In this document: positions 1 through 335 of the stretch, one piece after another | Layout: each line of letters starts with the position of its first letter | How positions within the stretch are numbered: position 1 is the stretch's first letter | Assembly: GCF_003334765.1 (NCBI RefSeq) | Contig: NZ_QOWT01000135.1 | Length of the DNA: 335 nucleotides | Source: Escherichia coli | GTDB lineage: Bacteria; Pseudomonadota; Gammaproteobacteria; Enterobacterales; Enterobacteriaceae | Reading direction: 5' to 3' (one strand) | Translations under genes and position numbers: made by a program | The notes under the pieces: generated by a model | What the model was told of the DNA's origin: nothing | Seen by the model: the letters and a program-made list of their open reading frames with translations, nothing else | Databases searched by the model: none

Positions 1-117
1 TACAGTCATCATGCCTGTCGTACGGAGTGTTATGCCATGACGGTCCATTATTACCGGCTGCGGGATTACGCCCTGCAACATCCGGAATACGACGCCATTA
101 TGCGCATTATTGACTGA
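1..117 (+). CDS. 3' end of upstream CDS (5'-partial; 38 codons + TGA stop at 115-117); probable antirestriction protein of the ArdB/KlcA family (YfjX/YafX-like)
   Basis: Frame 1 is open from position 1 to the TGA at 115-117 and translates to YSHHACRTECYAMTVHYYRLRDYALQHPEYDAIMRIID*. The C-terminal pattern (Y-x-x-L-R-x-x-A-x-x-HPE-x-x-AI-x-R-x-ID) matches my recollection of ArdB/KlcA-type antirestriction C-termini. Its position immediately upstream of a RadC-like gene matches the known CP4-island gene order. Family assignment is from memory, not a search. Confidence 0.6.
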   Translation, partial: YSHHACRTECYAMTVHYYRLRDYALQHPEYDAIMRIID

Positions 118-124
118 AAGGGGG
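117..124 (+). promoter_or_regulatory. Shine-Dalgarno / ribosome-binding site for the downstream RadC-like CDS
   Basis: G-rich purine tract AAAGGGGG at 117-124, overlapping the last base of the upstream stop codon. The spacer from the GGGG core to the ATG at 133 is 8 nt, within the usual 5-9 nt range. A second AGGA at 126-129 is only 3 nt from the ATG, probably too close to act as the main SD. Confidence 0.5.
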
Positions 125-132
125 CAGGAACA

Positions 133-335
133 ATGCAACAGATTTCCTTTCTGCCCGGAGAAATGACGCCCGGCGAGCGCAGTCTCATTCAGCGGGCCCT
201 GAAAACCCTGGACCGCCATCTTCATGAACCCGGCGTGGCCTTCACCTCCACCCGTGCGGCACGGGAATGGCTGATTCTGAACATGGCGGGACTGGAGCGT
301 GAAGAATTCCGGGTGCTGTATCTGAATAACCAGAA
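133..335 (+). CDS. yeeS: RadC-like JAB-domain protein (UPF0758 family; YeeS/YkfG/YfjY paralog group), N-terminal 67 codons, 3'-partial (continues beyond window)
   Basis: ATG at 133-135 is preceded by an SD and opens a frame with no stop to the window end. Translation: MQQISFLPGEMTPGERSLIQRALKTLDRHLHEPGVAFTSTRAAREWLILNMAGLEREEFRVLYLNNQ. I recognise this as the N-terminal region of the E. coli prophage-encoded RadC-like proteins; the JAB metal-binding motif (HNHPSG…) lies downstream and is not visible here. Which paralog (yeeS, ykfG, yfjY or a non-K-12 homolog) cannot be resolved from 200 bp; the symbol is given as the family representative only. Confidence 0.85.
   Translation, partial: MQQISFLPGEMTPGERSLIQRALKTLDRHLHEPGVAFTSTRAAREWLILNMAGLEREEFRVLYLNNQ

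Follow-up and report, generated by a model that had tools for sequence, protein, structure and literature searches.

The stretch of DNA analyzed here, referred to as the window (335 nt, Escherichia coli), spans the junction of two genes, which are described together with their features on the + strand. By translation, positions 1–117 carry the 3′ end of an antirestriction gene of the ArdB/KlcA family (161 aa), namely its last 38 codons and the stop TGA at 115–117. After an intergenic gap of 15 nt, in which a Shine-Dalgarno-like AAGGGGG (118–124) lies 8 nt 5′ of an ATG, positions 133–335 carry the first 67 of the 158 codons of a short RadC-like JAB gene of the yeeS type (WP_001186181.1), whose ORF extends past the window end. 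The whole window is 100% identical to the chromosome of E. coli NRZ14408 (NZ_CP158426.1), from which the full-length RadC-like ORF of 158 aa was read and where the two ORFs are annotated as “antirestriction protein” (161 aa) followed by “RadC family protein” WP_001186181.1. Matches to the window at ≥90% identity occur in 4,790 of 5,426 complete E. coli genomes (~88%), nearly all of them chromosomal, with a median of 2 and a maximum of 13 copies per genome.

The initial annotation of the window placed the ATG of the RadC-like gene at 133–135 and an in-frame TGA at 115–117, and both the coordinates and the frame are right, the stop codon lying 18 nt upstream of the start. Residues 1–10, M[QK]Q[LI]SF[LI]PGE, are conserved in 158-aa homologues, some of them labeled by their sources as Citrobacter, Klebsiella and Enterobacter, and the ATG at 133 is therefore supported. 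Two alternative starts were rejected. Initiation at window 163 (Met11), the start given in the annotation of K-12 YeeS, is ruled out here by the conservation of residues 1–10 across genera and by the variability of Met11, which is Ile in two of the 158-aa homologues. An upstream start, with a hidden helix-hairpin-helix (HhH) head, is ruled out by the in-frame TGA together with the complete ArdB domain encoded upstream.

In NRZ14408 (locus L001) the two genes belong to a module with the order DUF905, DUF932, ArdB, RadC, DUF987, CbeA, CbtA, DUF5983 (a fragment), DUF957 and DUF4942. This module adjoins an IS-disrupted Ag43 gene and kps capsule genes, and the locus is a CP4-44-like integrative island of E. 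coli. The Ag43/Cah autotransporter gene (L001:895–6328) is split by ISEc12 (IS21-family istAB) and annotated as two pseudogene fragments, while an IS110 fragment and the kps genes come after the module. The 158-aa protein is 99% identical to K-12 YeeS (CP4-44), 82% to YkfG (CP4-6) and 72% to LfgB/YfjY (CP4-57), which are likewise JAB-only and of similar length (148–160 aa). The order antirestriction, RadC, DUF987, antitoxin (CbeA-type) and toxin (CbtA-type) is also shared with CP4-6 and CP4-57. Unlike K-12 yeeS, the window copy has retained its ArdB neighbor and the complete N-terminus of the 158-aa form. Homology to K-12 resumes only at L001:8157, that is, at about window position 157 or codon 9 of the RadC-like gene (L005:5303 in the CP4-44 locus of K-12). 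In K-12, a segment containing yeeR has taken the place of DUF905, DUF932, ArdB and the initial codons of the RadC-like gene. It is because of this rearrangement that K-12 YeeS is annotated as 148 aa from Met11.

When the full-length protein was searched against Pfam, the RadC JAB domain PF04002 was matched at residues 38–157 (model positions 2–121 of 121, E 7.3e-45), overlapped by a weaker Prok-JAB match. No HhH domain and no UPF0758_N domain (PF20582) was matched in the 158-aa protein by this search, which does detect PF20582 in E. coli K-12 YicR, run as the positive control. The HhH-less, JAB-centered architecture proposed in the initial annotation is thus borne out, PF04002 being the only such domain present. 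Given the E-values, chance can be ruled out as the source of the homology. Among the NCBIfam models, the RadC equivalog (PRK00024) was matched only at positions 88–211 of 212 and with 161 bits, below the cutoff of 180, and the TIGR00608 subfamily model was passed with 149.1 bits against a cutoff of 133.85. The JAMM/MPN+ motif is complete, with E57, H107-N-H109, S117 and D120 (H107-x-H109-x7-S117-xx-D120); the published form of this motif is EXnHS/THX7SXXD (PMC300881). E57, H107, H109, S117 and D120 are invariant across 95 aligned sequences (42–57% identity to the query). The codon of Glu57, which occupies the position of the JAMM Glu, lies within the window at 301–303, and those of H107, H109, S117 and D120 lie beyond it.

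An AlphaFold2 model built on the alignment of the 95 relatives (pLDDT 91, pTM 0.83) contains no secondary structure before residue 13, and a helix at 13–30 leads into the JAB core. The stretch ahead of the JAB domain is only about 37 residues long and is modeled as a tail and one helix. Residues 1–12 (window 133–168) form the tail, which is predicted to lack regular structure (pLDDT below 50 for residues 1–6), although its sequence is conserved in the 158-aa homologues. Residues 13–30 (169–222) form a single alpha-helix in place of the HhH head (pLDDT about 86–91). The start of the Pfam RadC JAB domain (residues 38–67 of 38–157) occupies positions 244–335, where the first domain helix is modeled at residues 40–51 and the first beta-strand at 58–64. 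Translation of positions 133–335 gives 67 residues ending EEFRVLYLNNQ. The family-conserved FRVLYLNNQ, which had been expected to be reached by about residue 60, comprises residues 59–67 and falls at the first beta-strand of the modeled JAB core. Foldseek returned as its best match the RadC structure 2qlc (E 5e-13, TM 0.88 normalized to the target), followed by JAMM deubiquitinase homologues and, as weak neighbors, cytidine deaminases; the JAB (deaminase-like) fold is thus recovered by both the model and its structural matches. Domain search and structure prediction had been proposed as checks on the initial annotation. They returned the RadC JAB domain alone and a chain made up of tail, one helix and JAB core, with no HhH upstream and with the JAMM motif present downstream.

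Comparison with the housekeeping protein makes clear what the short form has and lacks. YicR (222 aa) carries UPF0758_N at 9–77 (E 8e-21), a weak HHH_2 match at 43–73 and the RadC JAB domain at 103–221, in agreement with the earlier statement that canonical RadC (about 220 aa) has an HhH domain ahead of JAB. By BLASTP, residues 39–158 of the island protein align with YicR 103–222 at 48% identity (120 residues), and by hhalign, with a profile of the 95 relatives, residues 22–158 map onto YicR 87–222. The short form therefore corresponds to YicR minus an N-terminal stretch of roughly 80 residues and keeps part of the linker, and the C-terminal part of helix 13–30 aligns with the YicR linker region from residue 87. 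The island protein shares with RadC/YicR (UPF0758; PRK00024, TIGR00608) a homologous JAB domain, an identical JAMM motif and this alignable preceding linker, but lacks the UPF0758_N/HhH head and stays below the PRK00024 cutoff. The locations also differ, as the island gene is flanked by the Ag43 pseudogene, IS elements and kps, whereas yicR has a core-genome position, between rpmB-rpmG and dfp. Among solved structures, the JAB domain of Chlorobium tepidum RadC (2qlc) is the best match both in sequence (E 2e-25) and in fold. Nevertheless, its crystal chain of 126 residues covers only residues 54–158 of the island protein in the sequence search and has no clear counterpart to helix 13–30.

The absence of the HhH head is by no means particular to this locus. 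When 1.84 billion 50%-identity representatives were searched exhaustively, 21,519 proteins matched at E ≤ 1e-10, and a set of relatives was formed from the query and the 94 best-scoring of these representatives at 45–58% identity, 95 sequences in all. UPF0758_N was found in only two of these 95 nearest sequences, so that 93 have no HhH head. In the 94 best-scoring representatives the JAB domain is preceded by a median of 52 residues, and the alignments of 80 of them begin no later than query residue 20. PHROGs also contains a 153-position family for the short form. The short form is an old, large and widespread HhH-less subfamily with its own conserved N-terminal helix, not a recent truncation. 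The term “truncated” in the initial annotation holds in so far as the protein is HhH-less and shorter than YicR, but it is better replaced by that of an old subfamily with a conserved N-terminal helix.

These results bear directly on the reading that the short ORF is a decaying 5′-truncated radC remnant, or that its start was mis-called and an HhH head lies upstream. Such a reading could draw on the length difference from YicR, on the score of 161 bits below the 180-bit equivalog cutoff and on K-12 yeeS, which is genuinely clipped at its 5′ end by rearrangement. Against it, the TGA is in frame 18 nt upstream and the DNA before it encodes a complete Antirestrict domain to its C-terminus. Moreover, all catalytic residues are invariant, the AlphaFold2 model is confident, and conservation of the N-terminal region extends across genera and to 80 of the 94 representatives, which are at about 50% identity. 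The length of 158 aa is likewise maintained, in 90%-identity clusters that comprise thousands of sequences. Pseudogene decay is ruled out by the retained length, the conserved N-terminus and the invariant catalytic residues, and the remnant reading as a whole is extremely improbable and already refuted by the results given here. It can be held with high confidence that the window encodes, at an island gene junction, the start of a yeeS-type protein with a stand-alone JAB/MPN+ architecture, an intact JAMM motif and no UPF0758_N head.

The gene upstream (L001:7632–8117, 161 aa) was characterized in the same way. Its product matches Antirestrict PF03230 at residues 66–161 (model positions 1–92 of 92, E 8.9e-35) and PHROG 10132, “anti-restriction protein” (E 3e-59). 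Judged by these matches, the upstream ORF is a true member of the ArdB/KlcA family of antirestriction proteins; type I restriction is reported to be inhibited in vivo by plasmid ArdB/KlcA. The 15-nt gap places the ArdB and RadC genes on the same strand and in the same reading frame (window 115–135 = L001:8115–8135), and the arrangement of stop codon, purine-rich stretch and ATG within 8–15 nt is found again at four paralogous junctions. The block is bounded on either side by a strong terminator-like hairpin (L001:6654–6683 and 10220–10246). No terminator-like site was found on the + strand from about 6700 to 9560 of L001, and hence none between the ArdB and RadC genes. In addition, the CP4-57 paralogues have been described as a yfjXY-ypjJ-yfjZF operon (PMC10846083). 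Co-transcription of the ArdB and RadC-like genes is plausible because of the 15-nt gap, the shared strand, the lack of an intervening terminator and the CP4-57 operon. Of the earlier claim that the two are co-transcribed, the antirestriction gene directly upstream is real (PF03230, E 9e-35), and the shared transcript is a plausible inference.

As for RNA elements at the junction, no Rfam family was found in or near the window, and the inverted repeats within it are short and unremarkable. A 9-bp stem (GGCAGGAA... / ...UUCCUUUCUGCC) at window 122–161 would bury the Shine-Dalgarno-like stretch and the ATG. Its candidacy as a regulatory stem was ruled out, since it reaches a z of only 0.58 against shuffled sequence and shows no conservation at the paralogous junctions, and it is probably fortuitous.

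Relatives of the short RadC are common beyond the E. coli chromosome. By tblastn they were found on 2,319 of 72,556 plasmids, 1,648 of which (71%) are typed as conjugative, and in 34 of 50,697 phage records. On an IncL/M plasmid of pOXA-48 size, a 149-aa JAB-only homologue directly follows a DUF3085 gene, in a same-strand block that also includes DUF4942, DUF1380 and an antirestriction gene (L003:6433–7366 and 10660–11520). Like the island protein, this pOXA-48-type protein, one of the short JAB proteins of plasmid leading regions, is JAB-only (62% identity over residues 38–158) and belongs to a same-strand block of small genes with DUF4942 and an antirestriction gene. Unlike it, the plasmid protein has a different N-terminal region and DUF3085, not ArdB, as its partner, and the plasmid is known to be conjugative. 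As DUF4942 is also the last island gene (L001:10277–11119), the E. coli island and the IncL/M plasmid share several cassette components. Adjacency of DUF3085 and RadC has been reported as frequent on broad-host-range plasmids, and a complex of the two has been predicted (2026; PMC12826799). In a Klebsiella plasmid record the order is DUF932, antirestriction, RadC (180 aa), YeeU and CbtA.

The neighbors of more diverged short RadCs were also surveyed, and the picture is qualitative as most contigs were too short to inform. In these more distant examples the commonest neighbor is DUF932, not ArdB, and SSB, H-NS/Hha and toxin-antitoxin genes are found nearby as well. Several diverse short RadC genes adjoin DUF932, SSB or toxin-antitoxin genes without ArdB, and one is surrounded by metabolic genes, which indicates that the linkage to ArdB is not universal. 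The loci with DUF932 near the short RadC (L004:4633–5454, L008:3464–3907, L018:7339–8166, L019:2674–3873 and L001:6723–7541) span the E. coli island, Klebsiella plasmid records, a metagenome contig and an alphaproteobacterial plasmid. The pairing of DUF932 and RadC may represent an older functional unit. On Pseudosulfitobacter plasmid p3 (L019:4001–5069), two tandem short radC genes come after SSB and DUF932 and before a RES-type toxin-antitoxin pair. On a metagenome contig (L010:4001–4447), a 148-aa JAB-only RadC (47% identical) stands by itself, flanked by GntR-family and citrate-transporter-like genes, and no obvious genes of mobile elements lie within 4 kb of it; HhH-less RadCs are thus not always island-borne.

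The short architecture and its pairing with ArdB are already known and do not constitute a discovery, because the short form is present in Pfam, NCBIfam, PHROGs, RefSeq, the K-12 annotation (YeeS, YkfG, LfgB) and comparative papers. A 2025 Koonin-group preprint names the module “RadC/ArdB antirestriction systems” (PMC12458937). The functional suggestion of the initial annotation, an establishment or anti-defense role, repeats an existing and unproven idea. Such a role would fit the genomic context, and the literature search returned no report tying the short RadC to conjugation, transformation or restriction evasion. RadC as a cofactor of ArdB, as a way to explain older reports of antirestriction “in vivo but not in vitro,” is a candidate weakened by recent work that reports inhibition of at least one type I R-M enzyme by ArdB alone in vitro (2025; PMC12429846), and because ArdB acts alone in that assay, it would not need RadC.

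In the mechanism put forward here, the RadC-like protein and the antirestriction protein would be made from one shared transcript, and the RadC-like protein would work as a zinc-dependent hydrolase without having to carry a DNA-tethering domain itself. Its gene would form part of an island and conjugative-plasmid cassette (DUF932, ArdB, RadC, DUF987, CbeA/CbtA, DUF4942) that would make it easier for the element to deal with a new host, and the preferred class of substrate would be a host protein, i.e., a regulator or a defense component. A peptidase acting on host regulatory or defense proteins, together with a role in establishment, is proposed tentatively and at rather less than even probability. 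The slight lean to a peptidase over a nuclease comes from the loss, in the short form, of the sole recognizable DNA-binding module and from the data on LfgB, the only one of YeeS, YkfG and LfgB with experimental data. LfgB/YfjY (72% identical) has been reported to degrade the antitoxin MqsA and casein, and its deletion mutant showed sensitivity to H2O2, acid and heat that could be complemented (PMC10846083). The protease assay involved overnight incubation of a protein of poor solubility, and contaminating proteases could not, as its authors concede, be strictly excluded (PMC10846083). Arguing against a peptidase, Iyer and colleagues considered that the RadC-type JAB probably has no groove for a ubiquitin tail and is likelier to be a nuclease or to process nucleic acids (PMC5512222, PMC3239186).

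Under this latter reading, the protein would act on incoming ssDNA of the element, newly replicated DNA or host nucleic acid during establishment, and a partner would supply DNA binding. Consistent with it are the deaminase-like fold and the fusions of the RadC JAB domain to HhH, ArdC-N, DnaG primase and DinG helicase (PMC5512222, PMC3239186), the cytidine deaminases among the weak Foldseek neighbors, and a mutator phenotype upon YfjY overproduction, as cited in a later report (PMC10846083). The family is also biased to conjugative plasmids, which enter as ssDNA, SSB and DUF932 genes lie nearby in some plasmids, and DUF3085, with which a complex is predicted, is often adjacent (PMC12826799). 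On the other hand, the short form has lost the only recognizable DNA-binding module, the sole biochemical report is of proteolysis (PMC10846083), and no report of nuclease activity was found in the literature for any RadC. Nucleic-acid processing is thus regarded as unlikely on balance, albeit a serious contender.

It may also be asked whether the protein is simply a domesticated stress factor of E. coli, a protease that removes MqsA or a similar regulator, thereby derepressing rpoS, and that has no role in horizontal transfer. The RefSeq name of lfgB, “CP4-57 prophage protease,” would accord with this. Nevertheless, the window protein is of the YeeS type and shares only 72% identity with LfgB, and the authors' caveat itself leaves the biochemical evidence weak (PMC10846083). 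The family is found at 2 places in the median E. coli genome and at as many as 13, and on thousands of plasmids in many genera. One regulatory job specific to a single host does not account for such copy numbers and plasmid spread, and a purely domestic stress function appears improbable.

A stronger form of the establishment proposal would see the HhH-less RadC as a true anti-defense or establishment effector, a zinc hydrolase made with ArdB and DUF932 just after entry of the element, that would act either by inactivating a defense or regulatory protein of the host or by processing the DNA that has come in. This is doubtful at present, though a little less so than the stress-factor reading. 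To our knowledge, antirestriction activity has been shown for no RadC. A functional analogy, and only that, is offered by ArdC, an antirestriction protein of the conjugative element R388 and a metallopeptidase-containing factor by which the plasmid overcomes hsdRMS of the recipient (PMC7213743); it is a precedent for antirestriction factors with a metalloprotease domain. Unlike the RadC-like protein, ArdC is a zincin-fold protease unrelated to JAB and has an ssDNA-binding domain of its own. The RadC JAB domain is fused to an ArdC module in some Firmicutes and fusobacteria (PMC3239186).

Few proteins of bacteria and their mobile elements are as widespread as the RadC-type JAB proteins. The short form has matches in about 88% of the complete E. 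coli genomes and is carried by conjugative plasmids in the thousands, among them resistance plasmids of the pOXA-48 type. With its single domain and clear catalytic motif, the HhH-less form is the simplest version in which to ask whether RadC-type JAB proteins cut protein or nucleic acid and whether they aid establishment. If it does act as an anti-defense or establishment effector, this would provide the first function for one of the commonest unassigned genes of enterobacterial islands and conjugative plasmids.

A few database proteins join or repeat the two domains in unusual ways. In the singleton metagenome protein P0022 (275 aa; ...IMRIIDRKGAGTMQQISF...), a TGA-to-Arg change fuses the ArdB and RadC ORFs, and two other proteins with both PF03230 and PF04002, P0040 and P0046, show a frameshift-like junction or a deletion. 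An ArdB-RadC fusion as a natural architecture was ruled out on the proteins read in sequence: all three are rare, each goes back to one of these changes, and they probably represent errors or rare mutants. Fusions of the P0022 type echo the natural ArdC-RadC fusions described in Firmicutes. Two further proteins, P0001 and P0006, contain internal RadC duplications and look like rearranged or misassembled copies, which suggests recombination or misassembly among the paralogous E. coli copies.
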